A DNA stretch of 32,960 bases from Amoebophrya sp. A120 (taxonomy: Eukaryota; Protista; Dinoflagellata): assembly GCA_905178155.1 (NCBI GenBank), contig CAJINV010000001.1:11346850-11379809 (forward strand), given 5' to 3'. Positions 3,434 through 27,045 of this stretch are shown here, in pieces; position 1 is the first letter of the stretch, and the number at the start of each line of letters is the position of its first letter. Under the pieces are notes generated by a model that worked only from the letters and a program-made list of their open reading frames with translations, was not told the DNA's origin and did not search any database. The translations under genes were made by a program, and so were the position numbers.

Positions 3434-6400
3434 TCATTGTCTCCCCAGACCGAAAAAGCCGCCACGTGGTTTGGGCTTGTTCTCTGTTTTTGCCTTCGTT
3501 GGTTGCGTGGACGAGTTCGCCGTGGGGCCGGTTTTCCTCTTGGTGGTCGCACTCTTGCCTCCTGCACCAGTGTCCTGCTGATGCTTTGCGCCTGGCCCTG
3601 CACCACCAAAAAGCCCTGTGGAAAGTGAGAGAATCAATCACTCAAATGTAGAATTAAGTGTAGTGGTCACGGGTTCTAGGGGACTGCTCAGTTCCAGCTT
3701 CATCATGTCGGTGTCAGAGTCAGTACGATCCGTGTCACGTAAAAAATGCATTTACAAATCAAATGAAGCACACTAAATTTGTCATATGAAAAGAAGGAAG
3801 CAGTGAGTTTTGTTGCGAGAGTGAGGTGAGTAAAGCAAGAAATTCAAGAGCTGCCTGACTCTATTTCCACTGCCCAGTACCATAGCTTGATTTTTTCTTC
3901 TGACCGCCTGCATGGTCGGTAGCAACCGCCGGGCCTTGAAAGTTGTGGTACGATGGTGGTTCTCCTGACACAGTAAGTTCCGGCTCATCAGCGGGCGTGT
4001 TCATCTTACTTGAGGAGTTCATGATGCGCATGTTGCTGTTGTTGCTCTGGTTCATGACGCTGCTGCTGTTGGGCCCTCCACGCAGGGACGACGCGCCACG
4101 TGTGGAAAAGCCGCCTCTGGACGAAGACGTGGACGCGCCCAGATGAGACGGATGATGGTAGTTGTGCTCGTGGTGGTGCTCGCCTGTGGCCGGTAAGGCC
4201 GACGCGCCGCCGTGGTGCGCACCAGAGTTCCGCTGCATGGAGTTCACTAACAGCCCAGCAGAGTTCGCGACGAGGCTCGATCCCTGAATTAGCACGCCGC
4301 CGTTGCTGATGCTGGGGCCTCCTCCGTGGTTCGCTGAGCCGTGCAGAAGATTTTTGTTTCCGCTCGTGTTAAAGTCGAAGTTTCGCGCAGACGTGTTCAT
4401 CACGTTCGTTAACACAGACGGTGGCCCACCCAAGGAGCTGCTGCTCTGCTGTATACTTGCTCCGTCTACACCTCCCCCCGCTGCAGTTCTGCTCGACGTA
4501 TGCTGATCTACTACGTCCAACCCGAGCGCGGTAGAAGTGGCCCCACCTGCACTCGAGAAAGGGACGATGGGTGCGAAGGCATTTGGATTGGACGCCACAC
4601 TCGATGTAGCCGTGCCATTGGTGTTCAGACTTCTGTTTTGTGTCGTCACTGAAGTCGTCGCACCACCGCTGTTTGCAGCACTGGACATGGAGACGGAGCT
4701 GACCGCTTGGTTGTTGTTATTTACCCCCGACGAGCTGCTGCTCTGCGACGTCGAGGTGTGCGAGGAAATCTTCCCGCGGTTCCGTTGCCCCGCTTCACGC
4801 GTCTGCCGAATGTGAGCGTGCATGTTCTCGAGGAACTGGGCAAACACGCGCGCGTTGTTCGCTTCCAGGCTGTTTGCGTTCGTACCAATTCCAGCACTAC
4901 TGCCTGCAGCTAGTAGTAAAGAGCCGGCGGTGAGACTGCTGCTGTTGTTGATGTTGGTGTTATTACTGGATCTCGTCTTGCTCGCACTTCCGCCAGCTGC
5001 CATGGAGCTTGTGCCGCTGTTGGACAAGGCGGAGCTGCTCAGAGGGGCGATCGCGAATTGTTCCGACAACAGCTCGGATACCTTGGAATTCGGGGGAATC
5101 ACCCACGCAGAGAGCTCTTCCTCGGCCAGAAAGCACTCCTCGTCTCCCTCGTCAATCTCTTCTTCTCCTTATGCAACAGAAACTCGTCACCGCTACCGCA
5201 CGACGACACAGACACACGGTGACTGCACACACCCGACGTACCTCCACGGGCACTATACAATATGCATGTATATTCATTTTCATTTCTCTATGTACTAAAT
5301 AAAGGAGGATCTGAGAGGATTCCGCTTCATATGCAAAGAAAGTAGTCGTGGTCACCACGTGAAGTGGTGATGACGGAGCGTCTTGCACGTGTGCTGCGTG
5401 TCGGCTAAAAGCGAAAACTACACTCGGATACTTCCTCTTCTAGTATGGCCGCATCCGCGCTCTTCGAAAACTGTTCATATCCACAGCAAAAAACTCATCC
5501 ACATCCAATTCGTCATGTAAAACACGTATCAAATCAGGCGTTTGTCATGCAAAAAATTGATGTGGGTGGTTTTTTTTCTGCTGATAGCTCCAGAAGGCAG
5601 TCTACTTGCCTTCCGAGCTCCGAGGTGTTGTCCTGGTGCTGCTGTCCGCTGCTTGTTACCCCACCTGCACAACTTGAGTCGGCCTGATTCTGTATCGTTT
5701 GGTGCAGCTTCTGCTTCTTTTCCAGAATGCTGCGAAACCCAATTCTTTCCGCTTCTTGGCGAAAGTGCGGCCTTCCAAGCAGAGAGTACAGCGTGCCGTT
5801 TGCGTACGTGCGAACCTGGGAGTCTATGTGAGGACACAGCATCAGAGCCGCCAACACGGGCAGCGTCGACGGAATCTTTTCGAGCTGATTTTTGCCCGCC
5901 TTCCGCAACGCCAAATTCATCAACAGCGCACTGCCGAATTCCAGTGTAATTTCTGAAATCAGCGTCCCGCGGGACGGCCGCGAAGGGTCATCCGTGTGCA
6001 CGATGTGCGCCATCTGCATAAAGGTTTCGTGCGAAACCGCATCTGCACTGGGTAATAACCCTGCTCCTGCTCGACTCATCAAATGGTGCTGCTCTTGCTG
6101 CGAAGGTGCGCTCATCTGCTCTGGCTGGTTGCCTTGCCCCGTGATCACCAGACTACCAGTAGCCGCGATGGCGCCGCCACCACTTCCGGAGGAATGGGAG
6201 GCCGAGAGGCGGTCTTGCTGGTGCCACAAACTGCTCGAGGAGCTCGCAGAGTTGTTCGCGTTGCTGTGCTATGCATTGGAAAAGTATCGCACTTCGTAGA
6301 GACTACATTACAAATTTATCCAGAGGTTGTGCTGCAAGTTCACCAGGTGGGCAAGAAAAAGCGGACCTTCTGTCATGCAGCCAGCCTGCAATTTTCACGA

Positions 6401-8729
6401 GTTGCGTGATACTTCTCCAGTGGATACATTACGTATCGTGCCACCAGGAGGTGGAGGCGCAGTTGCACCGTTTGCGTTGTTGGAGGAAGACGAACGAAGT
6501 AGTTTCCCACTGCTGCTGCCCATTGGTGTCGGGTTTAGAGAATTGGAGGCGGAGGACGAGAACAGAATGAACTCGCGAAACTCCCCCAAAATCCAGCTCA
6601 TCAGCTGCTCGTCACAGATCATGGCTTCCTGCATCTTTTGCGACAGTGATAGCCTTTGCAACGCCACCAGTGCCTGAAGCTCCGTGTTGTCGGACCGACC
6701 CAGGTGCTGCATCAGCCCGCGGATTAACAGGGATGGGTTTTGCGACAGGTACACGCGCCCGCCGGCTTCACACGCTATCACGGCGATCAAAGCAATGCAC
6801 GCGTCCAGCTGCAAAAAGGACGCAAAAGCGCTGGACGCCGGGTCACCGGTGCCTGGATGAAGATGATCGATTCGCGCTTTAAACACTTCCTTCAGGAGTT
6901 TCAGGACTTTCTTCTTCATATAGAATCATGGGAAAAACAGAAAGAGATTTGACTTTCAGAATCGAGTAATTAGTACTAGTCAGTGGTCCAGCTCCAGTAT
7001 CCGCACTTGCGGACGCCCCGACGTGCAAGATGTCGAAACAGCAGATGCCATGGAGGAACGCGCGGCGGTCGGCCAGAGGATCGAAGGCGGAGCAGCAGTG
7101 CTTTAAGATACTGATGAAAAGGTCGTTCTGGAGGGTCGCCGGGCTGTTTGGCGGCGGGTTTTGCAGCGCAGTCCGAATCCGCTGGAAATCAAACCGCGCG
7201 CAAGGACCGATTTGCTCGATGCTGGCCCCGCCGCTGTTGGCCTGCGCAGCCATGATCCCGAGCGTGCGGGACCGCGACCCGGACCGCGAGTACAAGGTTG
7301 ACTGCCGACTCGGCCGCGCGCCGTAGCGGCTGTACAGGGACTGCCGACTGTGTACCCCCCGAGACACCAGCGCTCCGCGGCTTTTAATGTTGGCGCGCGC
7401 GCTGTCGGCTTCGAAGAGCATCATGGAACCACGCCGCGAGTAGAGCTGCTGCACGACGCCGTTGAGTTTGCGCTTGAGGTCTTCGTACGCCTCCCACTGC
7501 TTGGCACCTCCGCCACCTCCTGCGGACGAGGAAGCTGGGAGTTGTGTTCCAGGCTGCCCGTTTCTGGTGGGGTTTGCCGACGTACTGGAACTCGAGCCTC
7601 CGTACTGATACCGATCTGCTAGCTGCGGGAGGAGCCCGGCTCCGAGGTGCTCGTCGCTGCTGCTGTTGGACTGCTGCAGTGCCTCGCCCATGTGCTTCAG
7701 CGCCAGCTCCGAAATCTGCAGAAGATCCCGCACCGGATACAGAGAGCTGGCACTGCCAGCTACTGGTCCCTCGATCAACGCGTACAGGAAGGGATACCTA
7801 GTCGGGAATGAAGCCGTTGCAAAACACGTTGCAAAGTGTATATTTATAATTCGTAAGGAATGCTCTAATTTCGTCTTACTATCTAGGAATCCCATTTATG
7901 ATCAGTGTCGTGCAAGAAGATACATAGTAAACAAGCAGTAGGACGACGCACCTTGGGGCATTTTGCGCAGAGGAGGGAAACTCGTGCAGCACCTTGGACG
8001 TTTCTGCTCGGAGGTCATCAACCCACTTCTGCGCGAAGATGTGCTTGAGTTCTGGGTGTTGGTGTGGCGTCGGCACAAACGGCAAAGCGTAGAACGCCAC
8101 CATGGAGCCGTCCTCGTCTTGGTGCTCGGCCAAGTATTCTTTCAGTTCCTCGAACTCGCCCTGCTTCTGTCGCGGAAACTTCTCGTTGTTCTGCAGCCGC
8201 TTGCGCATGGGCAGGATGGCAAAGTACACACGCAACCGCAACTCGAGCGAAGAAAGATGGGAAACTGAGTTGGTCGCCGCTGCACTAGCCTGCTCCAGTC
8301 GGCGCCAGCCTCGGAAAAACCGCACGCTGTCGCCTGAAGTAGAGAAGTTTTACTTTCATTGTTTTCCTTTTCGCAGCCAACGGAATAAATTGAAATCGAC
8401 AGACAGTGACAGACGCAGCTATACATGCTTCAAATGCACGTGCCTATAGTGATTGCTATACCGGAGTCAAATGCCTCGAGCAGAGCTTCCGGCGTGTACG
8501 ACTGCGAGCTCGCTGCCGCATGATTGGAGTTCAGCGATGTCGCTTCCTTCTTTAGTGTCTTCAGCGACTTCTCGAATCCGTGATAGGTCAAGTATTCCTC
8601 AATAGCGCGCAGAATAGTCAGCTCTTGCATACCCGCACCGAAATCCAGCGTGTTCCAACTTGGCAAGGGGGTTTCATGTTCCTGATCGTAATTGTGGCTT
8701 TCATCGGGGGGATTGAGACTGTCCGCCAT
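3434..8729 (-). CDS. ARMC9: LisH domain-containing armadillo-repeat protein ARMC9 (ciliary), about 8 exons
   Basis: LisH motif ILRAIEEYLTYHGFEKSLKTL and ARMC9-like blocks FDSGDSVRFF, LELRLRVYFAI, FYALPFVPTPHQHP, TLEFGSALLMNLALRKAGK, YANGTLYSLL, RQVDCLLEQF. GT-AG introns at 8334-8461, 7798-7951, 6890-6953, 6269-6427 and 3616-3880; hairpin introns at about 5478-5586 and 5170-5430; long S/G/N-rich C-terminal tail. Confidence 0.9.
5170..5430 (-). mobile_element. Introner-like intron in ARMC9 (TAT...ATA, degenerate 5-bp direct repeat)
   Basis: Minus strand GGAAG|tatccg...ttgcata|AGGAG; removing element plus 5 nt gives in-frame ILEEEEEEIDEGDEE; weak internal inverted similarity; a GT-AG solution also exists. 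Confidence 0.55.
5478..5586 (-). mobile_element. Introner-like hairpin intron in ARMC9
   Basis: Near whole-length imperfect palindrome (cagcaaaaaactcatccacatccaatt vs aattgatgtgggtggttttttttctgctg); minus GGAGC|tatc...gata|TGAAC; excision gives RQVDCLLEQFSK, matching the ARMC9 RQIEFIIKQL block. Confidence 0.75.
6270..6426 (-). mobile_element. Introner-derived intron with canonical G|tat...ata|G (GT-AG) ends in ARMC9
   Basis: TIR tatccactggagaagtat vs tatgcattggaaaagtat (15/18); flanking G on each side creates in-frame GT...AG; direct repeat no longer recognisable. Confidence 0.7.
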
Positions 8730-9656
8730 TTTCACCTTGTCGTTGTCTGGTCGTCCTCCGGGATAGGAAAGCGAAAGGGTGCGCGTGAGAAAGCCTCGTC
8801 GTACTGCGTGGGAGTAAGCTTGTTTCCTGTAGATCTCCACTCTAGCTACCTCGCCCTACCCGTTTCGCTCACACCATTCCGCGACTTCTGCGACCTCTGC
8901 GTCCCTCTGCAACATGGGTCCCGTACGGGCGCGCCAGACATATTTATCCACATGAGGCAAAAAAGTTGCTGCTCATGCTCATGCATGCTGCTTTTCCTTT
9001 TGCGAGCTAACGCTTCACCTTATTGTTCGTCAGGTCAGCCTCCCTGTGATGTGACTGGCTGCGAGTCAATAGCGCCGCGAGCGCGACCGCGTTGAGGAGC
9101 ACTATAAGTAAACTGGCACACTCGACAATGATCGCTCTACGTCCGCGCTCTCTAGACGTGGGTCACGCCACGAGCATCCGATCGCGTCGATTGATCTCGA
9201 CGCTCTATGACTCGCGCGCTTTAGTAGTTGCTTCGACGATGACGAATCAACGTTGCAAAACGACTACATACACATCTTTTTGTAAGTCTAGAGCGTCAGC
9301 CACAGACTCGAATGATTTGAGCACGACCACGAACCGAAGCTAACCGAAAAAGAACACGAGACGCATTTACCACATGCACATTGCAACGTTGAAAGCATGT
9401 TTGCTGGTGCTTTGACGACGCAGGGGATCAACGTCCACGAAGCTCGTCGCGTTGCGGTAATGTTGATGGTGAGCCTTCGAATTCAGTAAAACCTGTAGGC
9501 AACCTACAATAGTCAACGTCTTCGGCGCTAGCACCAACTTTTGATATCTAGCTTTCGCCCAAACTAGTCCGTGGATAACGCCACATGACCAGGAGCACTA
9601 GATGAAAATCCAGTCACAGTCATACCTTCATCTGACCGGTTGTTCGCCGTTCTCAT

Positions 9657-10147
9657 TCAGCGGGGCTGTCCGTCCCGGAGAGCCATGTCGTAACCGGTGC
9701 CCGCGGAGATGTCCGAGGCGCAGTACCGGAAAGTGGGTTTGTACTCCATGTCTGCCTGCTCCTCATAGTTCGCGATCAGCTGGCAACCCTCGCCAAGGCA
9801 ACTCAAGGACACTCCGCCATACGCGTTAGCCCGCAACGCAGCCCCGCCTTGCCCTTGCACCGCGCACGTGCACCCAGGTTGTGAATTTTCTTGGCATTGG
9901 GCAAGACTTCCAACACGGGGGAGGTTGAGGTTGTCGGCGGCCTTCACGACAGAGAGCACGCTCGCCGCTTCTCCAGCACTCTCGCCTTGCCCCGCCCCCG
10001 CGACGCTGAACTTTGCGTCCGCGGTGACCTCGGTGCTCTCGGGCTTCACGACGTCCATTGCCATCGCGGACGTCACTAAGAAGAATTCGAGGAACAGGAG
10101 GACCCCCCCCCCCGGAAGGGGGACGCATCGATGTCGCGCGTCAACAT
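9657..10147 (-). CDS. Hypothetical small Cys-containing secreted protein; 5' end interrupted at an 11-nt homopolymer
   Basis: ORF 9657-10076 is preceded in frame by a signal-peptide-like stretch VLLFLEFFLVTSAMA; ATGs at 10128 and 10147 are each one base out of frame across the C run at 10103-10113. Confidence 0.5.
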
Positions 10148-10750
10148 CTCTTTCTTTTATAGATATTCTGGTGGAGGCTTTGACTTAGTTTGCCGCACGT
10201 CGTCCCTATTTCATTTTTAGTTCGCGTGCGGGCACCTCCGCAAGAAAGTACATCAGTGAGGGAATCGAAGCGACATCAACATTCGATCGAATTGGGAAAT
10301 CGTGCTCAAAACCAGCGGTGGGAAAGTTCGCAGATGAAGTACCGCTACCGGCTGGCGGTGGTCGTTCCACAAAAAAATGATCATGCTCAATAGCGATTCG
10401 TTTTGTCTTCATAAACCGAAGCACCGGAGACCCATGCTAACGATCAAAAAGTGCAAGTAGTTGCAGCACGAAGTACTTGGCTGCTCCTGCCCTCAACTCA
10501 GATACGTAAGCAAGAATAGGAAAATAACGCAACACCTCGGACTCTCATCTCCACGCTCTCCAATACGACCGCACCCAGGTCGACGTTCCTCGTTTCGAGC
10601 GTCCTTCTCCTATGACTAACAAAACGAAAACACAGCTACTCTAACACGCAGCTGCATTTCACGAAACAAATTTCTGGAGAGAGTTGCAGTGTCGTCAATT
10701 ACCCCATCCGAGCTTCGTCTTTTTGCGTGGGTGAATTAATTTTTGGCATC

Positions 10751-12010
10751 CTATTTCCCTTTGAGTTTAATAAACAGAAGTAGCAGTAGCGTGAGACTGA
10801 GCACGAGTGCGGTGCTCATGAGTATGATTTTGTTTGTGAGAACCCGCCGGCTCATTTGCAGTAGTACCCGGCGGCTGTTCGTCAAATTCCGATCGATGTT
10901 GTCAATATGCTGTCGGCTTTGCTGAATCACTTCGCGCTGCTGCCTCAGATCGCTCATGATTTGCGTCCCCGTGGCCTCCGTGTCGACCGCCATGCGATGC
11001 GCATCCTTCAGTTGCCCGGTGCCGGCCGCTATTCGGTTGCCGGTCTCGCGAAACCTCGAATTTTTTACCAGTTCGGCGTCGCGACCTCCTCGGCGCTCGG
11101 CCAGTAGCGCATCCCGATCCACGTTGGCGCGTACCTCGGAATACTCCCGACGAAACCCAAGTTATCCCACGGAAAATCACCACAATTACCGTAAAACTAA
11201 ACATTAAATAGAATTGCAAAAAGAATGCATATCTTCACGCCGGGTGGTCACGGTCATGCTCGTCGTTGAATTTCTTTCGCATTCTGCATTTTCTTTTCAC
11301 CAATTGCAAGTGTAAAAGTGGCAGTGACTTTACCAAGCGTACAACGAGAAGGCTGCGGTACTGACGGACCCGCTGCTGCACGACGCCAGTGGTCGGCGCT
11401 GCGGGCGGGAGGGTCTTGACTTCCTGCTATGAAAATGAAAAACGCCATCCTCTTTTTCACTGTACGTAGGAGCATCATCATATCTACAAGCACGTGGAGC
11501 TTGTTCGACGAGAAAAAACTTGATGAATCAGAATCGCGGCGTTTGTTCCTGAAAGTAAAAACGTTACAGTGGCAAAAACTGCGCTTGATTTTCATTTTGT
11601 GAAGATGGTGATAGATAGCGTCTTTCATTTTCCTAGCTGCTCCATTTGTGCTATCTGCTGTTCCGCAACTTGCATCTTTTGCTCCACGTTGAAAATAGCC
11701 TGGATTCTCTCGTCGATCGCAAGGACATCCTGGCTGCCGGTCGCCGCAGGTGCGCCGCTTCGCTGACCTGGGTTAACGTTAGAACCAGAATACGACGTCG
11801 TGCTGCAGCACACGTTTGTACTTATTTTGCCTCTCAAGGACCTGCTGGTGACCATTAACGCTAGATACATGGGGATCTGCTCCTGCTGTTCCTGTTGTAC
11901 TGGAATAAATTGCAAAAACAAAAAATAGCTCAATAAGTACCGGCCTTGGCGAGCAACTTGCGAATTTCGCTCTCGGAATGATGAAAATCCTCCTCATAGG
12001 AGGCAAACAT
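10751..12010 (-). CDS. VTI1: Vti1-family Qb-SNARE (vesicle transport v-SNARE), about 4 exons
   Basis: N-terminal MFASYEEDF, Habc QMEQEVKTLP...RVRQYRS, SNARE motif AHRMAVDTEATGTQIMSDLRQQREVI...LTNSRRVLLQMSRR, C-terminal TM anchor; GT-AG intron 11900-11940 and hairpin introns 11428-11635 and 11163-11341. Confidence 0.88.
11163..11341 (-). mobile_element. Degenerate introner-like intron in VTI1 (TAC...ATA)
   Basis: Minus CGTTG|tacgc...gggata|ACTTG; removing element plus 5 nt gives RQYRSLLVGFRREYSEV in frame; TIR weak; a longer GT-AG intron is also possible. Confidence 0.5.
11428..11635 (-). mobile_element. Introner element in VTI1
   Basis: TIR taggaaaatgaaagacg vs tatgaaaatgaaaaacg (15/17); direct repeat GCAGC/GCAGG; excision yields QMEQEVKTLP; no GT donor at the junction. 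Confidence 0.85.
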
Positions 12011-12534: not shown

Positions 12535-12774
12535 AATCTCCAAAAAGGAAAATGCGCAAAGATGAAAATAAAAAAACCATTTGTTCGGTTTGCTGCAGTG
12601 CGAGTGCAAGGACATGCGCTCGCGCACTCCTAGTGTTATTTTTTGTTCTTAGTTGGACCACGCAATTGCATGACCACTGGCTTGATTGTCATATCTGATG
12701 TTGTTACCAATATAGCATCTTTTCGATTTCGATGAGATTATCTGTGTATTTGTGTTGTAACAGTAAATGAGTTA
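12535..12774 (-). mobile_element. Candidate old introner in a small unresolved gene (about 12050-12889)
   Basis: Perfect 5-bp direct repeat CAGAT flanking taac...gatt; excision joins AEDADR to an open frame LRRRTRSYMQLACWFPP...RVF ending at a gtaag donor. Confidence 0.35.
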
Positions 12775-12989: not shown

Positions 12990-15511
12990 CTAGTAGGTTT
13001 TCCGTGCGATCAGGGACTTCAGATCGATTTTGCCTTGCTCCTCGTAATCCGCTTTGGTGATTTCGTAGTAAGGAAACGTGGAGAAGCTGGCAAACATCGA
13101 CCCCCCTATCCAGGCGGCGTTTTTTCGCTGCGAATCCAGGACCAGCTCAACTTTGCTTCCGACGAGCTTCTGCACCTCGCTGCTTATTCTGCCGGGAACG
13201 CCAGGAAGCATGCTTGTACCTGTGCGTGATATTGCGGTTGTCTTTTTTATTGAAAGCTTGATCCTCGCAAGGATCACACGGCAGAGTGTATCTCCTCTGA
13301 TTTGTGTCCTGGCCTGCCGAAACCGGCGATCAATCACAACTTTTAGGACTAACAGACCTGGCTGCTCAGAGGCATTTTCCTATGATGATGTACGTGCTCT
13401 TCATTGTTGCATGATGGTGCAGGTGCAGCGAATGCGAAGAAGATGCCGCTGCAGCTCCAGCTGAAGAACATGGATGGTCCACAGAGACAGACATGATCAT
13501 GATATAGATATTGCAAAATGTTGTAGACGCTCAAATACCTCCTGTGAGCACAATGTTGTGCATGCACTCGGCGCGGAATTCAGGGTCTAGGGTGTTCAGG
13601 GCAGAAGCACAGATGTGTTGCACGCTCTGCTCCTCGTCACTGGAAAAGAGGACTTCCCCCGCAGCATAACGAATGTCGTGCGGGATCTGATTTTTTTTTG
13701 CGCATTCACATTCTTACAAGACGTAATGAGTTACAAGTTTCTCATGCAACAGTTGTTCCTACTTTAGTCAAATTCATGGCGCGATTGCCATGCACTTCTA
13801 CTTCATTTGTAATTCCAGTTAGCCACCATCACAAACGGAAAAATGAAATTATGAAATCCATAAACAACTACAGGTGAATCCTTACCTGTACGATGCTGCC
13901 GTCTGGTAATTCGAAGGACCTGTGTTCCTGGTCAGATGGGTCCTTGCTGAAGGTATGGACACAAAAAGCATGACAAAGCTCGTCCTCGTCTATTCCGAGA
14001 GTACTTGCTGGTCTTTGTAGGCCTATCATCTTCCACGAGCATGGAGGACAGACACGTACTGGCTACCTATCGGCGGGGAGCTTTGCCGCTTTTCGTTTTC
14101 TGTTTTCATTTTCATATGAGCAGGCTTTATCGTAATCAATAACAACTTCGCAGAGTTTTTCTTTCATCTTTCGCATGACGAGCACTTGCTGGGCGGGCTC
14201 GAACTCCGGTACAATTCGAGCGTCGACACACCGGGCGTAAAGCTCCTCCGTAGTGAATCGCATGCAAAATCACCCTCATCACCCTCCATCTGCAAAAAAA
14301 TGCGGAGACTCGTAAAATCTTAATCTATCAGGCCCAAGGCCGAGCGTAATTGTTGAGGATCGAGGAGTACACTGTAGTGAATTTTCATCTTGCATCATCT
14401 AGGAGGGGGTACGTTGTAATTGTATGGATCAGCGTTACAAGTCAACGGAAATAAGGGTCGTGAGGGGATGTTATCCGATGGGATATGATGTCGGAGCCAC
14501 CGCAGTCCAGTTTGAACATGGCATGTGGTATTGCGTAGCCCTCGAAGACCTGAGATTTAGATAGAAGAATGCACAAAAACTACATGTAGTTCCATCTGCA
14601 CCTTATCGCCCTGCTATGTATACTTCTTTTTGTGAATGTGCTTGGATATTGATGCAGAAAGCAACCATGAAGCATATGATTTTCGCTGAAAATAACCCAT
14701 CTTCGTAATAAGACAGCGTAAGAGTACCGGAACAGCGTGCGTGACTCCATCACCGGACTCCAGAACCAGACCTCTCGTCTTCCCGGTTGAAAAAAGCGAC
14801 ATAACAGCCGTGTTGAACATGGCCAGACTCTTCACCTTGAACTTCTCGAAAAGCAGCTGGAGTTTTTTGGGATTTAGAATTTGCATGTAGAAGCGCCCGT
14901 ACTTACTACGCGAAGTAGCTGCTTGGCTTTTTCCTTTCCCAAGCCAGCAAGCGGAACAAAAAAAAGTATTCGTGCGCGGAAATTCCTTGGAAAGAAAACT
15001 AAAACTTCTGTTAATTCATCATACTTACCTCGCCCATCCACTCCCGGGCGGCTTTTGTTTCTGTTGGTGAGTCGAGCAGCAACACGGGAAAATCTTCCGG
15101 CTCGACCCCTAGGACCTTGGTAAATGCGTGCTGCAACAAGCTCTCAACCGCAGAGCCGCCTGCCTCGCTCCCGTGATCGATCATTCCGCGCTTTACTGGG
15201 TAGGTCAATACCGGGCTCCCTGATACGCTCGCGGCTTCCCCGCCTTGGCTTTCCGATGCTACCGCGGCGCTGTTGTATTGGTAGGCCTCCAGTCCCAACA
15301 GCGTCTTCTTTGTTTTCTCTACTTGTCCGGCTGCACTCCCGCTGGACTGGCCGAGCCCTCCACCCGCAATGATCTCCACCTGGCCTACGACTGTATCTAC
15401 GCACGCCCGCGGCGCGTCCTCGCCGCAGAAGCCGATTTTAGTCACTCCGGAGCCCATGTCGATGACGATGACGTCCGTCTCGTCCATCGTGGCCTCTAGG
15501 TCCATCGCCAT
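12990..15511 (-). CDS. Actin-related / actin-like protein, 7 exons
   Basis: Actin-fold motifs VIVIDMGSGVTKIGFCGEDAP, YPVKRG, LFEKFKV, GLVLESGDGVTHAVPVFEGY, KEKLC, FELPDG, NIVLTGGTSMLPG, AAWIGGSMFAS. GT-AG introns 14857-15028, 14550-14727, 13947-14066, 13687-13885, 13220-13538; one non-canonical intron about 14256-14485. Confidence 0.92.
14256..14485 (-). mobile_element. Non-canonical introner-like intron in the actin-related gene
   Basis: Minus CATCA|tatcccat...atgcgatt|CACTA; excision gives GGSDITEEL (actin AGRDLTDYL); in-frame stops inside and no frame-compatible GT-AG pair at this junction. Confidence 0.75.
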
Positions 15512-16559: not shown

Positions 16560-17897
16560 TTAGCGGTGTAGTCTCGGTGCTTCATACGGTCCACCTGGGT
16601 CGTCCTCGGTGGTCGCTGCTGGAATGGAGGTTGTGCTTCTGACACGGACGCGCGCATTGTCGTTGCTGCCGATTCTTAGCTTGACCTTTACCTTATTCGT
16701 AGTTGTAAATTCGCCGTCGTCCTCCTGCTGGGCGGAATTCCCGACGGACCCGGTACCACCCCCTTGCCCTTATGCAATTTCGTCAAATTTTGACGCGTTG
16801 TACTTGATGCTCGTCCTCATCTCCAGGATCTTATATTTGTTCTACCAAGCCCCACTGTCAGTCTCATCAACTTCGTCTGAATCTATTCAAAAACTACACC
16901 TTAAGCTTTGGCTTTCCACTATGCAAGTGCTGAGCACTTTCCTGTCTCGTTAGTTGCACGCTTTGATTAATTTGATCTTCATTGTCAGCGAGATGGAGAT
17001 CGACGTTGCTTATGCATCATTCTGATCGAGATCGAGATGTTCGAGGCCGGCCAGAAATGTACGCAAAACGAAGAAATTCATGCGTCGTATCATGTTCAAC
17101 CTCACACCGTCTGCGTCCACGTCGCCTCTGGCATTCACAGTGGCCGAGTTGCCGTATTGGTCCCTCGTCGCTTTGGTCACCTCCTCGTAGCTGTCCCCGT
17201 CCCCGCTACTTCCCCTAGCGTATGTGAGCGTCAGGCGGGAAGCCAAGTTTGCCAAAAAGTCGACATTGAGAAAATTCAAATGTACCACGGAAAGCTCAGA
17301 CACTCTCCGTGCTACGAACATGCGCGAAGAGCGAAAGCGATTAACATTTTGCCATCAATATTAAAATGCACTTGATGGTCGATTCCACCTCCCTAGCTGA
17401 CACTATCATACCCTTCTTCGCCGCCGTCTCCTTCTACTACCGCGCTCGCGCCCTTCGCCTTGGCTTTCACGTTTTCCTTCGCGGTTGACAAACGAGGTTG
17501 GTGGGGCTTCGCTGCTGGTACTGCTGTCCTCCGCGTTGGAGCCATAGGCACGATCTGCTTCCTCCAGACCTTCGTTAGACGCGCTGTGAGCACTGTGACT
17601 GTGTTGTGCTTCCGCACTATCCGCAAGGTGGAGCTGCTTCTGCTTGTTGCTGTTGGGCTTCGACAAAATCCCCGGCAAGGCGGCTCGTCCTGAACCGATT
17701 CCGGTGTAATCCTCGAGTTCCTTCGCCTTGTGTTCAAAATTTTCTCGCTGGTAAGCCGCTTCGTCTTCGACCAGCTGCTTGGTAGCTGCACATCGAACCG
17801 CGGTAGTCACTAGGATGACCAAAATCATAACCATTACTCGTGTGCCTTTCAGCAACACCAGAAAATCTAGGTGGTGGCGGCCCGCTGCTTGTCGCAT
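16560..17897 (-). CDS. Hypothetical protein with N-terminal hydrophobic segment and charged low-complexity regions (exon structure uncertain)
   Basis: Open frames 17406-17897, about 17011-17215 and about 16560-16770 on the same strand; hydrophobic VMVMILVILVTTAV near the start. Confidence 0.45.
17221..17410 (-). mobile_element. Candidate introner-like intron
   Basis: TIR tatgatagtgtcag vs tatgtgagcgtcag (11/14); removing element plus 5 nt joins RRRRR to GGSSGDGDSYEEV in frame; the direct repeat AAGGG/TAGGG is offset by 3 nt. Confidence 0.55.
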
Positions 17898-18422: not shown

Positions 18423-21400
18423 TCAGTCAGCAAACGCTGCCCGGCTTAGATTTTCAAGCATCTCCGCCGTGTTGGAATACTCCGGTACAGAACGAGAACC
18501 AAATTGATAGTAAAGAGCATCAACAGGTCATAATTCACTGCAAGCTCGTATTGATTACCCGCTTGACAGATCCTGGAGCCACATAGGGAAGTGCTTCCAC
18601 AGTCCCGTACCCATCTGGGCCGCGCTGGATCTGGAAGGAAACCTGAAAGTTTGATCGACTTTTTCTTGGGGTTGCGCTCTTCATTTGATGGATTCATGTT
18701 GGTTAGCAACGAGGAGACGAGCATCAAGCTCAATCTCAAACTCATACTTGCGCCGGCGAGATCGCGAAAAGATTCATGTTCGCAGTCTTTATTCTTTTTC
18801 TTTCTGGTGCGGATATTAATATTATACGTCGTCTAAACATTCAAAAAAAATCGATAATGAGAGACGACCATCAATACTTCCCCTCAACTTTACATGACTA
18901 CACGAGAAAATCATACAATGTCTCCCGGCTTCAAATCTTCTGGCGTTCCACTCTCGTTCAACTTTGCATCATTAAGATGCAGTGCGCGCACTCCCACACA
19001 GCCGATCGTGAGGCTTTTTCCCTCGCCTTTCACCGTTCCCACGAAGCCGCGCTGGTTCAAATTCTGGGGAGGTAACTCCGAACCTGGTGATCAATTTTTC
19101 GTGTGTTGGTGACGCTATCGCCAAAAATAAGAAAAATCATGATTATGGTAGTACGCATTTGCTGTGTACTCGGTTACGATCGTATTTGTACGTCGAACTC
19201 GAACTATATCAGATTCATCGGTATTGATTGTCATGACAGCGGTTCAAAGGTGGAACTCCCAAGCTGATTATACCGTGTTTGAAGCGTAGGCAAGCGGCGC
19301 CACTCGGGTCCATTTGCACCTGAAACGCCAGAACCGCTCCCTCCGGTAAATGTAGAAAGGACAGTGTGGGCAGAGAGATCGTGGGAAACAACGCTGCAAG
19401 CTCCGGACAAGCGATGTGCGTTTTCTTGCTGGCGCTGTCTCGTAGATACTGGCCCGTAAAGTGAACGGTGGAAAAGTGGACGCTGCTCAGCGGGGTCTTT
19501 TTTGTTCCTGATAAAAGAGTTTTCGTGGACCATGCCAAAGCTAGAAGAGAGGACCGTTGAGGGAGCTTGGAAGAAGCAAATTAAAGTTGGCAAAGCAGGA
19601 ATGTTGTTTTTTGACTTTCGGCGTCGAGGAAAAAAGAAAAATGGTCAGTGACAGTGAAGAACGTCAAACAAATCAGTCGTACGCGCAGTCGGACTTTTAC
19701 CGCAACTTGTATCCCCCGGCTCCACGCCCCAAGATTCTAACTCGTTTTCAAAGTAAGCGCACTTCGGGAAGTTTTCGCTGTTGTGATGAAAGCCCGGCCC
19801 CGGGGGAAAGTCCGTAGTTGGTTGCCACCTTTTCGCCGGTGTTGAAGTAGAAGAGTTTCCTTTTCTAGCTGGAACTGGTTGCGCTTTCAACTCTTGCTGT
19901 CGCGGCACAGAATTTTTCATCTCGACGCCGTCGCGAGTCGTAAGCACAGTTTTGCTACTGGTTGTATTTTCGTCATCAAGAACTTGCTTCACCACGTTTG
20001 CGGTCGTGCTAGGTGGGCGTGCCCGTTTCATCTTGACACCGCCACTAGTCGTAAAGGCGGCGCTCCAAGGCTTTACCCGTTCTTCTGCATTTCCATTCGG
20101 GCTGCTGCGCGTCTTGCCAACGGCAGTATCAGTGTGGTCGTCGTGGCCGTAGTCCTTCTCCTGTTCATTCCACGAAGACCTAGACTGTGATCCGCTTGTA
20201 AGATTTTCATGCTTCTGCTGTTTGCCATCATGCTGTTGCGGACCATACTTTTTCATCTCTTTGTCATCCTTCTCGTCCCACCACGGCTGCGTGTTTTCTT
20301 CCCCATCGTCCAAGCCCTTTTCCTTCCAGTCGTGGTTCCGATTCTCTCGTCTGGTGTTCCACGACCCGTTTTGATTGTTCCAACTGGACGATGATGATGA
20401 CGAAGAGCTGGCTGATGTGCTCGCGTTTTGGTCTCCTCCTGCTTTCCTTCCCCAGCTAGAAGACCAGTCTTCCTCTCTACCATCTTCTTCGCTCCACCTT
20501 TTCCACGAATTGGAAGAGTTTTTCTCGCCCTCACTGTTCTTGCTGGGGTTATTTTGGGTTTGTTCTTCTTCCCAGCCTTTTTTTTGCCAGGTATAGTCTT
20601 CTTTGTTCCACCATTGTGAAGAAGACTTCCAGGAGGAAGAGGAAGTAGACGTAGACCGATCCTGCTTCTCGTCGTTCCAAGAATTCTTGTAGCTGTGGTC
20701 CTGCTGTTTTTCATTTCGTTCCCACCAGCAAGAATTATTCGTGTGCTTGTCACTTTGCCAGCCTTGTTTCTTGTCGTCGTCCCATCCGTCTACTTCTCGC
20801 TTCTGGTAATATTCCGCAGGCTCACCCCGACTGCGACTGCTCGTTTTCCATGATGAGTTTCTTTCCTCCTCCTCGTCTTGATTCTTTCTACTTTTGCCGG
20901 TATCGTCTTCTTTGTCTTTCTGTTTTTCGCTTTCCCACCATTCAGCATTGTTTTTCTTCCTTGAGGACCACCCGGATGAAAAGGCTCTATACGTATCGCT
21001 GTCGTGGTCGCGATGCCTTGAGCTACTGCTTGCATTTTTCTCCCTCGTCGGCTCAACATGTTCTACTCGAGGATCCGGTGTTCTATTGGTGTTTGCATTT
21101 GTCTATGAAATGCAAAAGCATCGCACTAGTAGTAATCGCATTACAAATTCGCTCAGCATTACAAATGGAATTTCTCATGCTGATTTACATTGAGAAAGAG
21201 ATTTGTCATGCATAATTGCGATTACTACGAGTACGATGCTTTTGCGTTGCATATTGTCCCCCCGCCGAGTCCGCAGTCTTCTTTCCATATGACACCCTCA
21301 GAATGGAAATCCTCAAAGTGGAAATAATTTGTAATGCAAAAAAACGACTCCAGTTGAAGCGCCATTTCTAGTCGGCGCATGACAGATTTTCCGGGCACTC

Positions 21401-23505
21401 AAAGCATGTCTGTCATGCTAAGTAGGCAAAGGGGTGCCCTTCTGTCGTGCTAAGCAGCACTCCAATTCTTCACCCCTAGCAGGACAATAGTCGGCCTCCA
21501 TTGCGTCCTCTGCAATACAGTCTTTTTTGCGTGGCATTTCATGCATCACAAATTATTTTCACTTTGAGGATTTCCATTCTGAGGCTTTCATATCCCACTT
21601 GTCGTGCTTCCAGTGACCTTCGTCGTCGTTTTCTTGGTCGTTCTTAGCACGGCTCTGGTAGCAGCTGCCCTTCTCGCGCTTCACTTGTTCCGCTCGAGCC
21701 TTCTGGTTCTGTTTGTAGGCGCAAAATTCCCGATATTGCTCTTCGATGAATCTCTCTGCATCTTGTATTTCTGCATTCACATTTTGCCCGCGCCCGTCCC
21801 TCTCAGCGCCGTCGAAGGAAGACCGTTGGGAAGACCACGAGGACGAGGACCGAAGACGCCCCATCGGCTGCGGTAGTGGTGCACTTGACACTGAGGAAGA
21901 CAGCGATTTTTGTTTCTCCATCTTCAAGGCTGTGGCTTGCGTTTGCTTTTGCTCCGAAACTTTGATCATGTTCTGCACGGCGTCGCCCTCAAAAGAGATT
22001 TTCGGCGCGTGGTGCTGTTGCGTCGCGTGGTGTTCTCCGTGAAGAGTTGGAGCAGGTTTGAAATTTGATGCCTCGCACGATACTGAAACTGACACACTTT
22101 GCTGCGGCGTCACTGGTCCTGGATTGACTCTCGCGGTTTGATGGCTTTTCTGTGTCAGGGCAGACGCTATACTGTCTTCAGATCGTCGCTTGCCGGCTGG
22201 AAATTTTGTCGCCCAGGCGCTCTCCCAATCCGTTGGGGCGCGGGAACGGGTAGAGGAGGGCGCTCCTGCTTCTCCACGCTCATTTTTATCAACTTCCGGA
22301 CTACTTTCTGACTCGGGACACTCTACGACAAAGTTGGTGCCCATAGCATACTCCTTCTTTTGCGGACGTGGGCGAGCCTCATCCGGCGAGCTCTTGGCCG
22401 CGATTGCCTGCTCTACGTTTTCGGCTTCACCAATATCGTGATCACGAGGGGAAAGATGAGCAGAGTAATGCTCACAGCCCTGCTTTGACGGCAGAAACAA
22501 CGAAGTGCTCTGCTTCGAGGTGGGCAGTGACACGGAATCAGTGCCAAGCTGCGCAGTATCCTTCGTGGTTGCTTTCGAGGCTGAAGTCGACAGTGGTCGT
22601 TTTGTCAAGTACAAGGCTTCGTCTTGTTGGCCCTCCTTTGTCAAATAGGCCTGCGCTGTCTCCTGCTCGTGGATACCGTATTTCAGAGCTGCGTTAGCTT
22701 CAAGGAACGCTCCTGCTCCAACGCCCTCCTGCTGCAACAGAACGCCAGCTGGGGCCAAAGTAGGTGCGATGCCCTTACACCCCACGTTCGCAGCTGCTGC
22801 GTCCTGCTCTGACTCGTCATCTTCTGCGAGACCCATTCCCGGGGGGAGCCTCATTGCTACTTTCGACGCAGCACACGACAACTCCAAAGAAGCGGGTAGA
22901 TTACGTGTAGCGTCTTCGGGCACATGTTGACGCAATACCTCTACTTCCGCCGCATCCTCAAAACACTCCGCGGAAGGTGTCAGCTGCGGGGCGGGCGTGC
23001 CTGCGTCGTGGTAGATTTCGCCAGGGGACGAAATGGTAGCCGAATCCTTCGACAACGCTGGCATGCGAATACTGAAGTGACTCTCTGCGGGACTTGTCGC
23101 GGACCAAGTAGTTCCGACCGGCAATATATTTCGATTTCCAGCATCAGCAGCAAATCCAGTTTCGTCATAACTGCGGGCGTTATAGAAATCGACTTCCACG
23201 CTGGTGTCGATGGCTGTACCCTCTCGGCTCGTTGCTGCGACGAAGGGTTGCGGTTGCCCTTCTCGGTGTACTTTCTGCTGTATTTCGAATCCATCGTCGT
23301 CAGCGAGACAGTTTTCATCTCCATCGGCCAAACCCGAAGCGCTTTGAGGCGGATAGAGTAAATCTAAATCTAGATCATCTATTGGCGGTGGAAGACCCCC
23401 GTGCAAGCTGGATATTGACGTCGCGCCCGACAAGGCCGACAAGCGGGCCGGAGCCTCGATCTCGTCATTGTCCGGAGATGAAGCGAAATCGTTGAGCGGC
23501 TGCAT
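18423..23505 (-). CDS. Large protein: acidic disordered N-terminus, Trp-rich charged middle region, C-terminal degenerate cold-shock/OB-fold-like repeats
   Basis: ORF 21559-23574 joins via two introners and a 34-nt exon to an open frame 21102-19660, then GT-AG introns lead to FTGQYLRD...HIACPELAALF...LPEGAVLAFQV and GFVGTVKG...LKPGDIYEFEIELD, which resemble cold-shock-domain repeats; 3' end approximate. Confidence 0.65.
21104..21253 (-). mobile_element. Introner element, family A copy 1 (150 nt)
   Basis: Perfect 5-bp direct repeat GACAA; TAT...ATA ends; TIR core gcaaaagcatcgcactagtagtaatcgca has 2 mismatches in 29; excision keeps frame (GGGTNANT). Confidence 0.92.
21288..21592 (-). mobile_element. 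Introner element, 305 nt, long TIR
   Basis: TIR cctcagaatggaaatcctcaaagtg(g/a)aaataatt, 34 nt with 1 mismatch and extending further; ends tatga...tcata; direct repeat TGGGA/TGGAA; excision removes the stop at 21559 and keeps frame. Confidence 0.92.
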
Positions 23506-25191
23506 TTTGATTTGGTGTACATCAAGGAAACCTATCCTTCTATCAATATTCAAGGACAAGAACCACAAACCCAAACGAACTAACGACGTCTTTCTCTTTA
23601 CAAAAAACTCTTGTGTTCAATACGCATCGCAATATACACAAACGCAATATTACCGCGGCAAAGTCGGTGAAAGAAGGAGGACAAGCACAAGGGTTGTAGT
23701 AACTTATGGAAAGACTACTTGTACTTTCACAACGGGCACATTAAGTTATTTTCACTGATCCTGATTGATTGTTGCGCGAAATTAATTATGCTTGCATTGA
23801 GGATACCCGTTCCATGCTTTCGTTCCTCACAACATGCCGATCTGTATCATCTGGCCATCCGATCTCTGAGGCAGAACCTAGCTACGTACATGTGGATGTG
23901 CAGCTACATGAAAGAATATGGAAATGATCTGGATCGGGACGGATCTCTATCTTCGACTCGATCTTTCTACAAGCTCTGCGGCACGTCCTCTACCACGACC
24001 ATTGACGACGAAAATCGTGATCGTCGTGGTTGGTTTACAAGTGTGGCTAGTCTGCTTCCACAGACAAGAAATAAACAAGCAGCCAAGAAATAAATAGAAG
24101 ATGTACATGTATGCACCTCAGTAAGCTGCACAACGACCGATCAAAAATTCTGGCAGTACGCCTGTGAATCGGATAAAATTTCAGATTCTGATGTAGAGGT
24201 ACAACAGTAAGCCTGATTCTGTTGAACAACCGCGTCAGTGTCTTGGAGGAGCAAGAGGATACTCTCGCCGCCTTGACATTCGCTGGAAAAATCTGCGCTG
24301 CCAAAGATACGTCGAGGCGTTTCGCGCAATCAGGTTAATATCGTCGTAGCATATAGCCCTTTATGGTTTTCTTGAATTTTGCAGGTATCTCTACTCCTTG
24401 AAAGAAATCATCAACGCGACGTGCGTTTATTCTTTATATCGAAATCGACAAGCAACGAGCTGACATTGTTTCATTTCGTTTGCACCACAAAAACACAAAA
24501 ACCGTCAGTATTGCTGTTACCATTGGTCATGACCGGGCTCGCAATACAAGCATCATGAGGGAGCTTCCAGGGTCGGTGAATCCGCAGATGCGAGTAGATG
24601 CGCCTGTACCTTATCTTCGTCCGTGTCGAATCAAGAGCCTTACATGAAACCAAAAAAAAAGCTAGAGAAAAAGTTGTCTTGTGGCTCCAAATATTCTTTA
24701 TTTGATTTGTAAGTAGAGCACTAATAAATTGGCGCGACATTAGTTCCATGTATATGTATCGCAAAAAATCGGAAAAGCATAAAGTACACTATTCTTTACA
24801 AAGTTTCGCAGAAAAATCAAAAATGGCTGCTGGCAGTACGGTCGGGCTGATGCCAGAACCGTCGCTAGTGCCACAGGAAGGTCGTCGAGCTGGTGCAGCA
24901 ACGACTTACTTGAAACTTCGCCAGCCAGCGATGAACGCCGATGCGGACGAGCAATTGTTTTCATTTGTGTATAGAAACTACTCCTACTGGAACGTATTCG
25001 TTGAGTGTACTGATACAGACCGAGACACGCACCACTGTGAAGTGAACCATCTTCAAAGATAAATAGAGAGACGAAAAGTTATATCTCTCCTCGCAACGAT
25101 TCCGGAACTCCCTCACCCTGCCCTTCGTGACAAGCTGCCGCCCAGCAGAGCGGCAGGGTGTTTTTCGAGATCGTCAGGCCTCGAGCTGCTC

Positions 25192-27045
25192 TCACAGAAC
25201 TACCCACCAAAGAAGGAAGAGTCCCGCGGTGAGTGCCAGTGCGCCGATGACGCCATACCAGAGCATGGAGATGTTGGACAGAAACGACCCGAAAAAGGAA
25301 CCACTAGATGCTGGGCGCCCCCCGGCACCGGCTGCGCCGGCTTGTTGCGCATTGTTATTCATTCCGTGATGCTGAAATTGGAACTGCCTCGGAACAGCGT
25401 GCCCATTGTTGTTGAACTGCAGCTCCCGCTGCGCAGCTCCGGGGCTGTTGTTGTTCGGGTTCAGAAACGCATTGTTATTGTTGTTATACGCACCGTAGTT
25501 ATAATTCTGGCCCGCTGCATTCATGTTCGCCCCTCCGTTCCCCGGGAAATTAGGATTATTGTTCGGAAAAAAGTGCTGGTCTGCGTTGTTGATGCTACTA
25601 TTGCGGATCAAGACGCCCAACCCAACCAAACACACGGCCGCGATGCAAAAGAGGATCATCACGATGCGGCTGCGTCCATAGTTCTTCGATGCCGACGCCG
25701 AGTTGTTGTTCTTGCGAGAACTGGCGTACTGCCCTGTGGAATCATACTTCGAAGTTCGGTGCTGAAAGTTTCTTGATGGGAGCTTCGTGCTAGAAGCACC
25801 ACCTGCTCCTCCCGGGGGTCGTTTATTCAGCAAGTTGATGCTGTCTCGCGGTAGCGTTCCACTTGATGCAGTTGGTGCACCAGAAAGCTGCTGTCTAGAG
25901 GCACGATTCAGGCTTGCCATGCTGTATTTCTTGTCCCGGGGGGACTGACGCTTCAAAATGGACGCTGCACCGGGAGGGCCCAGCGGGCCTGGAAAAGCTA
26001 TTGCAGAACCACCGACAGGACCTGATATGAAGACAGAGGGAAGAAAGGATTTTCTTATCTGAAATCTCAATCTTTGGGTCGGGGAAAAATAAAGCATAAG
26101 CAATGAATATACTCGAAATCATACCGTAACTTTCAAAACGCGCAACATACCTCTCGAGATTCGCTGGGCCTTGCCACTACTTTTCCGAAAGGGCCCGCGC
26201 CCACCTGCAACATTTTGCCCTTGCACCTGATAATTGCAATTCGAGTTCGTTTTTTAGCTACAAACGGCGGCATTTTGAAAATCAACAGGAGCCAGAATGC
26301 GCAGCTTGTGACGGAAAACATTGCGAAGAAACATTTAACCCCGACCACGAGCAACGAACAGGAGAGCCCCACTGCGCAGCCGCTCCCGTCCCATGCTATG
26401 GAGCGCTAGAATGCAGTCGAGACTTCTAGACGTACTATCAAAACGGAACGCAAGACGCTACCTAGTAATGCAACTTACGACACCAGAATCAGTCGTCACG
26501 CTCACGATTCTAAAATACTTAAATAAAACCATACCTGACGAGACAGGCGTCGGTGGTTTTGGTGTTGCAAAGCAGCCTGCTCCGTGGTTCTTGCTTCGTA
26601 CCTGCTGCTTCTTCTATCCCCATATCCCAATCGCGAAGGATCTACAGCATCCTGCGTCAAGGAGCTCTCTCCAGTGGTGCTCGTGTCGTCATCCGTGTAG
26701 CCCGAGTCATACGAAGAGGAGTACTATGAATTGCAAAAGTATCGTACTCGTATAAATGCATTACAAATTTTCTCAGCATGAGAAATAAAATTTGTAATGG
26801 GGATTTGCCTCAAGAAAAAGATTTGTAATGCAAGACTTGCATTTATACGAATACGATACTTTTGCACAGGATAAGTACTCGTCATCCTGCAGGTCGTCAC
26901 TGGAGTCCTCGGTGGACGGGGAAAGCTTCTGCTGCTTTTGCGCCACCACGTCGGTCCTGTGCCTGCCAGGCGCCATATTTGTAGCACTGGTAGTTGTACC
27001 GGCGGAGCGAGGCTGCAGAGGAGGGCTCTGCACGACGGAGGACAT
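25192..27045 (-). CDS. Hypothetical Asn/Gly/Ser-rich protein with two TM segments (one C-terminal), multi-exon
   Basis: Exon 26874-27045, introner, exon about 26534-26724 (DDEYSSSYDSGY...RLSRQ then gtatgg), small middle exons, last exon about 25192-26021 with IVMILFCIAAVCLVGLGVLI and LWYGVIGALALTAGLFLLWWVVL. Confidence 0.65.
26725..26873 (-). mobile_element. Introner element, family A copy 2 (149 nt)
   Basis: Perfect direct repeat GTACT; TAT...ATA ends; 29-nt TIR tgcaaaagtatcgta(c/t)tcgtataaatgca with 1 mismatch; aligns end to end with 21104-21253; excision gives DDEYSSSY in frame. Confidence 0.93.

Follow-up and report, generated by a model that had tools for sequence, protein, structure and literature searches.

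The stretch of DNA analysed here, called the window at its full length of 32,960 nucleotides (nt), belongs to the dinoflagellate Amoebophrya sp. A120 as judged by protein matches: three of its open reading frames (ORFs) each hit one 'unnamed protein product', at 100%, 97% and 100% identity, and three A120 proteins (P0001, P0002 and P0003) can be placed onto it in exact blocks. All six genes examined lie on the minus strand, and they are interrupted by elements with TAT...ATA ends, which are the already known introner elements of A120. At twelve junctions in this one window, seven of them documented by RNA from a single sample, the intron consists of one nucleotide, the element from TAT to ATA and four further nucleotides (the 1/4 register), and this appears to constitute a new and testable rule. 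The host genes are:

3434..8729, minus strand: ARMC9-like gene, about 1,360 amino acids (aa) when spliced (spliced ORF; Pfam CTLH_Armc9, E 6e-27, and ARMC9_ARM, E 2e-22)
10751..12010, minus strand: v-SNARE gene (spliced ORF; Pfam V-SNARE_C, E 3e-13), which we take to be Vti1-like
12990..15511, minus strand: gene of an actin-like protein (spliced ORF; Pfam Actin, E 9e-17 and 2e-15)
16563..17897, minus strand: gene of P0003, an unnamed A120 protein of 272 aa (annotated protein match)
18538..23505, minus strand: gene of P0001, an unnamed A120 protein of 1,288 aa (annotated protein match)
25195..27045, minus strand: gene of P0002, an unnamed A120 protein of 420 aa (annotated protein match)

The ARMC9, v-SNARE C-terminal and actin domains, which a first-pass annotation made from the sequence alone had proposed, are confirmed by the Pfam matches. 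At the level of single exons six of the 16 ORFs have Pfam matches, the other ten giving nothing at E 0.01, and an Rfam scan of the window returned no matches. Transcript evidence comes from two Logan contig sets (X1 and X4) of one sample, whose status as RNA was guessed by the tool; these cover positions 1-16600 and agree with the window there with zero letter differences apart from the gaps noted (one extra C, in X1). Beyond 16600 the junctions are taken from the annotated A120 proteins, which are weaker evidence than RNA, the annotation being transcript-based according to the methods of Farhat 2021 (PMC7789003; this and the other publications are cited for those of their portions considered here).

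Removal of the elements from transcripts

Fifteen of 16 joints are shown by the contigs, eight of them GT-AG and seven without any GT-AG placement. All seven of the latter correspond to TAN...ATN elements that are lost together with five further nucleotides (element+5), and the annotated proteins join at element+5 for five more (16771-17089 and the elements starting at 17221, 21104, 21288 and 26725). These twelve introns, named by the terminal dinucleotides they have in the 1/4 register, and one GT-AG intron of the same layout are given below with the bases surviving of the 5-bp flanking repeat and the number of equivalent placements of the junction:

5166..5431, minus strand: GT-GA intron of the ARMC9-like gene; element 5170-5430, repeat 3/5; contig skip of 266 nt, 3 placements
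5474..5587, minus strand: CT-AA intron; element 5478-5586, repeat 3/5; contig skip of 114 nt, 2 placements
6266..6427, minus strand: GT-AC intron; element 6270-6426, repeat 1/5; contig skip of 162 nt, single placement
11159..11342, minus strand: GT-TT intron of the v-SNARE gene; element 11163-11341, repeat 3/5; contig skip of 184 nt, 4 placements
11424..11636, minus strand: CT-AG intron; element 11428-11635, repeat 4/5; contig skip of 213 nt, 6 placements
13950..14117, minus strand: AT-TT intron of the actin-like gene; element 13954-14116, repeat 2/5; contig skip of 168 nt, single placement
14252..14486, minus strand: AT-CT intron; element 14256-14485 with 3' end ATT, repeat 3/5; contig skip of 235 nt, 2 placements
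16767..17090, minus strand: AT-GG intron; decayed element 16771-17089, repeat 1/5; P0003 junction, 2 placements
17217..17411, minus strand: GT-CT intron; element 17221-17410, repeat 0/5; P0003 junction (195 nt) and frame test, single placement
21100..21254, minus strand: AT-CA intron; element 21104-21253 of the 26725 family, perfect repeat; P0001 junction (155 nt), 6 placements
21284..21593, minus strand: AT-GA intron; element 21288-21592 with a 57-nt inverted repeat, repeat 4/5; P0001 junction (310 nt), 2 placements
26721..26874, minus strand: TT-AC intron; element 26725-26873, perfect repeat; P0002 junction (154 nt), 7 placements
26022..26150, minus strand: GT-AG intron with the layout G + TATG...CATA + TCAG, repeat 3/5, no predicted hairpin; P0002 junction

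A GT-AG placement is possible at none of the 12 junctions, and the GT-AG or GC-AG ends of U2 introns were not found there. The nine insertions of the first-pass annotation (5170-5430, 5478-5586, 11163-11341, 11428-11635, 14256-14485, 17221-17410, 21104-21253, 21288-21592 and 26725-26873) are all present, and its statement that most could not be spliced as GT-AG holds for every one of them; the element at 14256-14485 begins AAT on the plus strand, which gives the ATT 3' end on the mRNA strand. Three further elements had been overlooked, namely 6270-6426 and 13954-14116, both with RNA junctions, and 16771-17089 with a protein junction. Excision as element+5, as predicted for the nine, is seen in contig skips at five (266, 114, 184, 213 and 235 nt) and in protein junctions at four (195, 155, 310 and 154 nt). 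The ends of eight elements were recorded ahead of the RNA and protein data, and element+5 was then found at all eight. The contigs neither retain the elements nor resort to other GT-AG sites, skipping element+5 at all seven non-GT-AG joints. The claimed restoration of the frame is borne out by the spliced ORFs, but the frame is kept equally by +2 and +8, and it is the RNA and protein junctions that single out +5. Nearby AGs are left unused: a GT-AG intron of 159 nt at 6266 would keep the frame where the contigs skip 162, and near 5166 the available AGs would give 264 or 267 nt where they skip 266, though contigs would conceal minor isoforms at such sites. The first GT-AG intron of the ARMC9-like gene (8334-8461) is predicted only, from restoration of the LisH-CTLH frame, and is absent from the 15 joints shown.

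The elements are 109-319 nt in size with a longest stop-free stretch of 87 aa, and the ends of 11 of them have TAT in 19 of 22 cases and are A-rich at positions 11-14. A scan of the window for TA[TCG]...[ACG]TA pairs with at least 15/20 complementary terminal bases gave nine hits, against a mean of 0.35 and a maximum of two in 60 local dinucleotide shuffles; six are known elements, two are nested within 26725 and one, at 24352, is unexplained. With a direct repeat of at least 4/5 as an added condition there were four hits versus 0.03 in the shuffles. At a threshold of 12/20 the scan gave 73 hits versus 40 in shuffles, and since these are mostly noise, DNA by itself does not suffice to call the weak elements. 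The self-complementary termini of the earlier description are evident in six elements (at least 15/20) but weak at 5170 (8/20) and 11163 (11/20), and the complementarity is also low at 13954 (11/20) and 16771 (6/20). The flanking repeat, which it had called perfect or decayed, is perfect in two of its nine elements, 4/5 in two, 3/5 in four and absent (0/5) at 17221. Over all 12 elements 34 of 60 repeat bases are identical (binomial p 5e-7), and among 11 of them the identity is 0.60 at a length of 5 versus 0.18-0.45 at other lengths, an excess at lag 5 that upholds this part of the description save at 17221. The interiors, which it had described as mostly unrelated, are not all so: elements 21104 and 26725 are 78% identical across 143 nt, and element 6270 has one end in common with these two. 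Copies were sought only for the 21104/26725 family and 21288, and both are repeated in families. The elements have the features of miniature inverted-repeat transposable elements (MITEs), being short and non-coding, with terminal inverted repeats, a fixed duplication and many copies.

Two side observations concern the extent of such elements in the window. Element 5170-5430 may consist of two abutting elements (5170-5331 and 5330-5430) joined at CATATG, with terminal matches of 13/20 and 11/20 that are at noise level. The pair at 24352-24791 reads TAT...CTA, lies outside the modelled genes and has a 15/20 terminal match and a 1/5 repeat.

Register of the cuts relative to the element ends

When 99 pairs of offsets were scanned using junction coordinates only, the 1/4 register fitted all 12 junctions, including all seven from RNA; 0/5 fitted seven, 2/3 six, 3/2 four, and 4/1 and 5/0 three each. 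Random pseudo-junctions gave a mean of 0.08 fits and a maximum of three in 20,000 draws. This coordinate-only scan was relied upon because the ends of the elements at 6270, 11163, 13954 and 16771 had been fixed with the junction in view. Nine of the junctions are ambiguous through sliding, and the three with a single placement (6266-6427 and 13950-14117 from RNA, 17217-17411 from protein) all have the 1/4 register on the mRNA strand. Since these three sites retain only 1, 2 and 0 of the five repeat bases, the direct repeat is not required for the register, which is kept with a decayed duplication (0-2/5), with a weak hairpin or with a usable AG nearby. With the cuts so placed, T at +2, A at +3, A at -7 and T at -6 are invariant, +1 and -4 to -1 are free, and the introns have twelve dinucleotide pairs of which no two are alike. 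The five removed nucleotides are divided as 1 + 4 between the two repeat copies independently of the survival of the repeat; hence the earlier formulation of 'element plus one repeat' gives the right length at every junction tested but conceals a sharper split. In these introns it is the TAT and ATA ends that set the position of the cuts; neither GT nor AG nor the direct repeat serves as the reference, and we think there is a good probability that the same applies genome-wide. The fixed register is likely to be the missing splicing code of these introns. No publication stating a fixed A120 register was found; Figures 3 and S19-S23 of Farhat 2021, the Current Biology version of the Polarella study or subscription papers may already show one.

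It could be argued that the contigs without elements stem from an insertion-free strain or form of DNA and do not demonstrate splicing, as the runs were only guessed to be RNA and there is no DNA control. Such an origin is scarcely credible: the same contigs skip eight GT-AG introns and carry no other differing letters, and at the unambiguous joints one decayed repeat copy contributes four bases and the other copy one, a mixture that is unexpected of an empty site. It could also be that the cut site varies inside the direct repeat, in line with the legends to Figures 3 and S23 of Farhat 2021 (PMC7789003), and that the 1/4 fit is a small-sample effect, given that nine of the 12 junctions admit more than one placement and the published counts are symmetric. 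We regard this as improbable, in that no junction excludes 1/4 while nine of the 12 exclude 4/1, and the chance of some one of six registers fitting all of them is about 1e-4 for the 12 junctions and 5e-3 for the seven from RNA; furthermore, letting junctions slide inside a perfect repeat yields the published variety. The nine NT-NN motifs of Table S4 in Farhat 2021 were considered as support for 1/4 and dropped, as eight of the nine also have A at -2, the counts are symmetric and sliding yields these counts whichever register is the true one.

End-to-end hairpins are predicted in seven of the 12 introns (z -2.6 to -11.8 relative to 30 base shuffles) and in none of 13 GT-AG introns; in the other five of the 12 the predicted folding is weak (z -2.0 to +1.5) and the cut points are unchanged. 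Because these five keep the same cuts, terminal pairing would help young copies without being the whole signal, and the structure-guided removal proposed in the first-pass annotation is supported only in part. Among the GT-AG introns of the window (3616 to 26534), 11 of 14 donors, one of them from an intron that is predicted only, read GTAY and two read GTAAG, resembling the TAY ends of elements; this may mean that aged introners are present among the ordinary introns, or that N-UAY is preferred by the spliceosome. The GT-AG intron at 26022-26150 is possibly such an aged introner that turned canonical.

The A at -7 is invariant in the 12 introns while its partner at +4 varies in three of them, and could be a branch point near the 3' cut, a difference that is not significant at this sample size. 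The young copies described below give no support to the idea (TAT at 85/88 on both ends).

Insertion of the elements

The search for copies used as its pattern the inner inverted repeat of the 21104/26725 family, leaving out the terminal 8 bases. It was found at a minimum of 158 loci in metagenome_contigs (24 of 64 parts), all in one assembly with the prefix JACKZZ01, and viral_contigs gave no pattern matches. Among 161 copies with flanks, TAT occupies 309 of 322 ends and TGT two, TA..TA termini are present in 151, and the base composition of the targets is near even. Perfect repeats are of 5 bp in 121 copies, 2 bp in 17, 3 bp in one, 4 bp in one and 6-10 bp in none. A scan of the loci that was blind to the termini recovered 143 inverted-repeat pairs with a perfect 5-bp repeat, of which 132 are TAT..ATA; 29 of the latter lie outside the search pattern and include several further end types. 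The RNA and protein junctions, together with the perfect 5-bp repeats of 121 copies, corroborate the first-pass view that these are Amoebophrya introners of MITE type, whose TAT...ATA ends are fixed and whose insertion duplicates 5 bp of the target. A set of 132 'AAA..TTT, 4-bp' hits was rejected as a separate class, being an inner TGCA palindrome of the same elements.

At 158 distinct sites codon scores are best on removing element+2, +5 or +8, with 77 sites scoring above 5 at +5 versus 30-38 in the other frames. The orientation of 88 sites was inferred from the codon model; both orientations occur, the donor base is A in 30, G in 22, C in 20 and T in 16, and GT-AG would result at two sites, or at five under any placement. 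Given the even targets and the GT-AG at only 2/88, insertion would be blind to splice signals, unlike that of the Polarella class 12 elements discussed below. Two of the loci (L011 224-743 and L004 232-736) can be aligned, at 67-69%, with the entire window stretch 21103-21592, which holds both neighbouring elements, and it may be that different element families share internal sequence or cluster together.

Several end types thus combine TAT..ATA with exactly 5 bp, and fixed ends with a fixed duplication length are the usual mark of one type of DDE enzyme. This counts against the alternative that several unrelated transposases or an RNA intermediate were at work, with the shared ends reflecting selection for spliceability, in that only cleanly spliced elements would survive in exons. 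That alternative, which we judge rather unlikely, can draw on the published portions in which no transposase was found in A120 (Farhat, PMC7789003) and in which the A120 introners are assigned to several classes, one of them Mutator-like (Gozashti, PMC12130899). In the latter dataset, on the other hand, family 38 is listed with an integrase-related region, a 5-bp target site duplication (TSD) and TA/TA ends. The single DNA-transposon system of the first-pass annotation stays putative.

Known systems and a proposed mechanism

According to Farhat 2021 (PMC7789003), the A120 elements have ends of the form TAT + 7 nt + As, inverted repeats and direct repeats of 3-5 nt, including a 5-bp example; the intron borders are described as variable and unknown, and more than 60% of the introns in A120 are removed without using GT-AG, by a mechanism left there as an open question. 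In Gozashti 2025 (PMC12130899), for which the comparison took in all 58 A120 rows of one dataset, family 38 is listed as '5-bp TSD, TA/TA Termini' and family 19 has 5 bp by hand. Hence TAT starts, a 5-bp example and a family with 5-bp TSD and TA/TA termini are already published for A120. The elements of the window share with these introners the host, TAT-start inverted repeats, direct repeats at the borders, non-GT-AG removal and occurrence in families; unlike the 3-5 nt repeats and variable splice positions of these accounts, they have a uniform 5 bp and one 1/4 register. The trait is confined to some strains (PMC12005148, PMC11453091). The A25 elements begin with TTA and have TT-NN as their top splice pairs (Farhat, PMC7789003); aligned at the cut, A25 and A120 would both read N-T-A at +1 to +3, a reading to which the same sliding artefact applies.

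The class 12 introner-like elements of Polarella glacialis (bioRxiv 10.1101/2020.10.14.339549) also make a 5-nt duplication, the donor being formed by the last duplicated and the first element base and the acceptor lying in the second duplicate, but they need an NNAGG/NAGGH target that provides GC/GT-AG, whereas the A120 elements require no target sequence (2/88 GT-AG). The nonconventional introns of Euglena (PMC12501133, PMC11282704) similarly follow no terminal dinucleotide rule and have complementary triplets at a fixed distance, end-to-end hairpins, direct repeats and a proposed MITE origin; they differ in their CDG/CHG triplets, spacers of 3 and 5-6 nt and exon purine, as against N1-TAN...ATW-N4 without exon preference here, and belong to an unrelated lineage. 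The TA..TA ends of IS3EU/GingerRoot (PMC10045372) are shared by 151 of the 161 copies, but their 6-bp duplication is seen in none of the 161, in agreement with the earlier suspicion that the 5-bp form is distinct from IS3EU. Conversely, Ginger2/Tdd (PMC2836005) have a duplication of 4-5 bp, comparable to the 5 bp found here, but TGTNR ends, with TGT at only 2/322 ends of the copies. Judged by their sequence, the A120 elements thus lack one defining feature each of IS3EU/GingerRoot and of Ginger. Finally, Fritillaria borealis has MITE-derived introns that escape GT-AG with a modified spliceosome (PMC13326754, PMC11282704), though with preferred AG-AC/AG-AT ends, whereas the A120 introns have no fixed first or last base.

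On the whole, it is probable that these known A120 introners, with TAT...ATA ends and a 5-bp duplication, are lost at 1/4 cuts, having likely been inserted by a DNA transposase and likely being removed by a relaxed spliceosome. As a first step, an element would be inserted with a 5-nt staggered cut into near-random sequence in either orientation, which is strongly supported, the putative enzyme being a transposase acting in trans. As a second step, the transcript would lose element+5, with four bases of the duplicate upstream of the element and one base of that downstream being retained, as is seen in RNA contigs for seven introns and in annotated proteins for five. A 5-nt stagger that matches the 1 + 4 cut implies that the mRNA regains the original five bases, so that an exonic insertion would be nearly neutral in either orientation, and with the same cut it would do no harm if the repeat halves inside the intron decayed later. 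The third step would be the measurement of the cut from the TAT and ATA ends, which is shown locally and which we expect, with fair assurance, to extend to the genome. As a fourth step, a U2-type spliceosome might read an N-UAY donor without G at +1 and set the 3' cut by its distance from the terminal AUA, with the terminal stem aiding young copies; on this the balance appears even.

A relaxed spliceosome, for which we likewise see the balance as about even, is favoured over a separate cut-and-ligate system because the A120 spliceosome is nearly complete (83 of 89 subunits found; Farhat, PMC7789003), the donors of the window are mostly GTAY, the intron at 26022-26150 has the element layout and Fritillaria offers a precedent for the fourth step; moreover, 15% of the canonical A120 introns bear such repeats (Farhat, PMC7789003). 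The same elements could, with the same 1/4 register, instead be handled by a second, non-spliceosomal machinery for which the paired TAT/ATA ends are the recognition signal, with cutting and ligation a set distance away, as has been proposed for Euglena, where an analogous code N3-CDG...CHG-N5-6 is accompanied by circular products (PMC12501133, PMC11282704). This is possible though unlikely: the free +1 and last four intron bases, the unused nearby AGs, the end-to-end folding of seven of the 12 introns and none of 13 GT-AG introns, and the U1 small nuclear RNA (snRNA) not having been found in A120 (Farhat, PMC7789003) are consistent with it, while the register holds despite five weak hairpins and a +4/-7 pair broken in three of 12 introns, and both the near-complete spliceosome and the existence of a GT-AG intron of the same layout speak for removal by the spliceosome.

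Several points weigh against the combined picture of transposase insertion, 1/4 cuts and spliceosomal removal. The RNA evidence comprises two runs of one sample, guessed to be RNA, with contigs that drop minor isoforms; five junctions come from annotation and not from reads, and all 12 lie in minus-strand genes. The 161 copies come from one assembly, possibly of another strain than the window, and were selected for intact inverted repeats. In the portions of Farhat 2021 (PMC7789003) considered, the commonest A120 repeats are placed four nt before the inverted repeat and within two after it, a layout that may be the mirror of the 1/4 register, and neither U1 snRNA nor a transposase was found in A120. 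Both intron ends are free of fixed bases, which is awkward for a spliceosome. In Gozashti 2025 (PMC12130899) the family counts are symmetric, with 69% NT donors and 68% AN acceptors, automated TSD calls for A120 families range over 2-11 nt, and one A120 family, which is Mutator-like, has an 8-9-bp TSD with GG/CC ends. A simulation of TAT/ATA elements with a 5-bp duplication, in which junctions are slid towards GT-AG, matches the published counts of the largest A120 family (9,716 introns; r 0.92-0.98), but fits a true 1/4 and a true 4/1 equally, so that these counts give no support to 1/4; the result supports the shared architecture and is silent on the register.

The 1/4 register opens the mechanism of removal to direct tests and permits correct re-annotation of junctions genome-wide, and with it A120 joins Euglena as a second, independent example of splicing coded by distance from the ends of a transposon. 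We lean slightly towards the view that A120 has one genome-wide second splicing code, N-TAT...ATA-NNNN with cuts at its outer limits, which needs no GT, AG or target and is matched to the 5-nt stagger of an unclassified TA..TA/5-bp transposase. If this were true genome-wide, every inserted element would behave as a seamless intron whichever way round it lay; the origin of tens of thousands of new introns would be accounted for, and the published 'no splicing signature' would be an alignment artefact.

Two minor features of the contigs may be mentioned. At window 10102, inside a short, deeply covered gene (9657-10184) that has no Pfam match, X1 has one extra C in a run of C and X4 does not. At window 1686 and 7525 the contigs end loose in both runs, probably on account of unrelated transcripts with a common short word.

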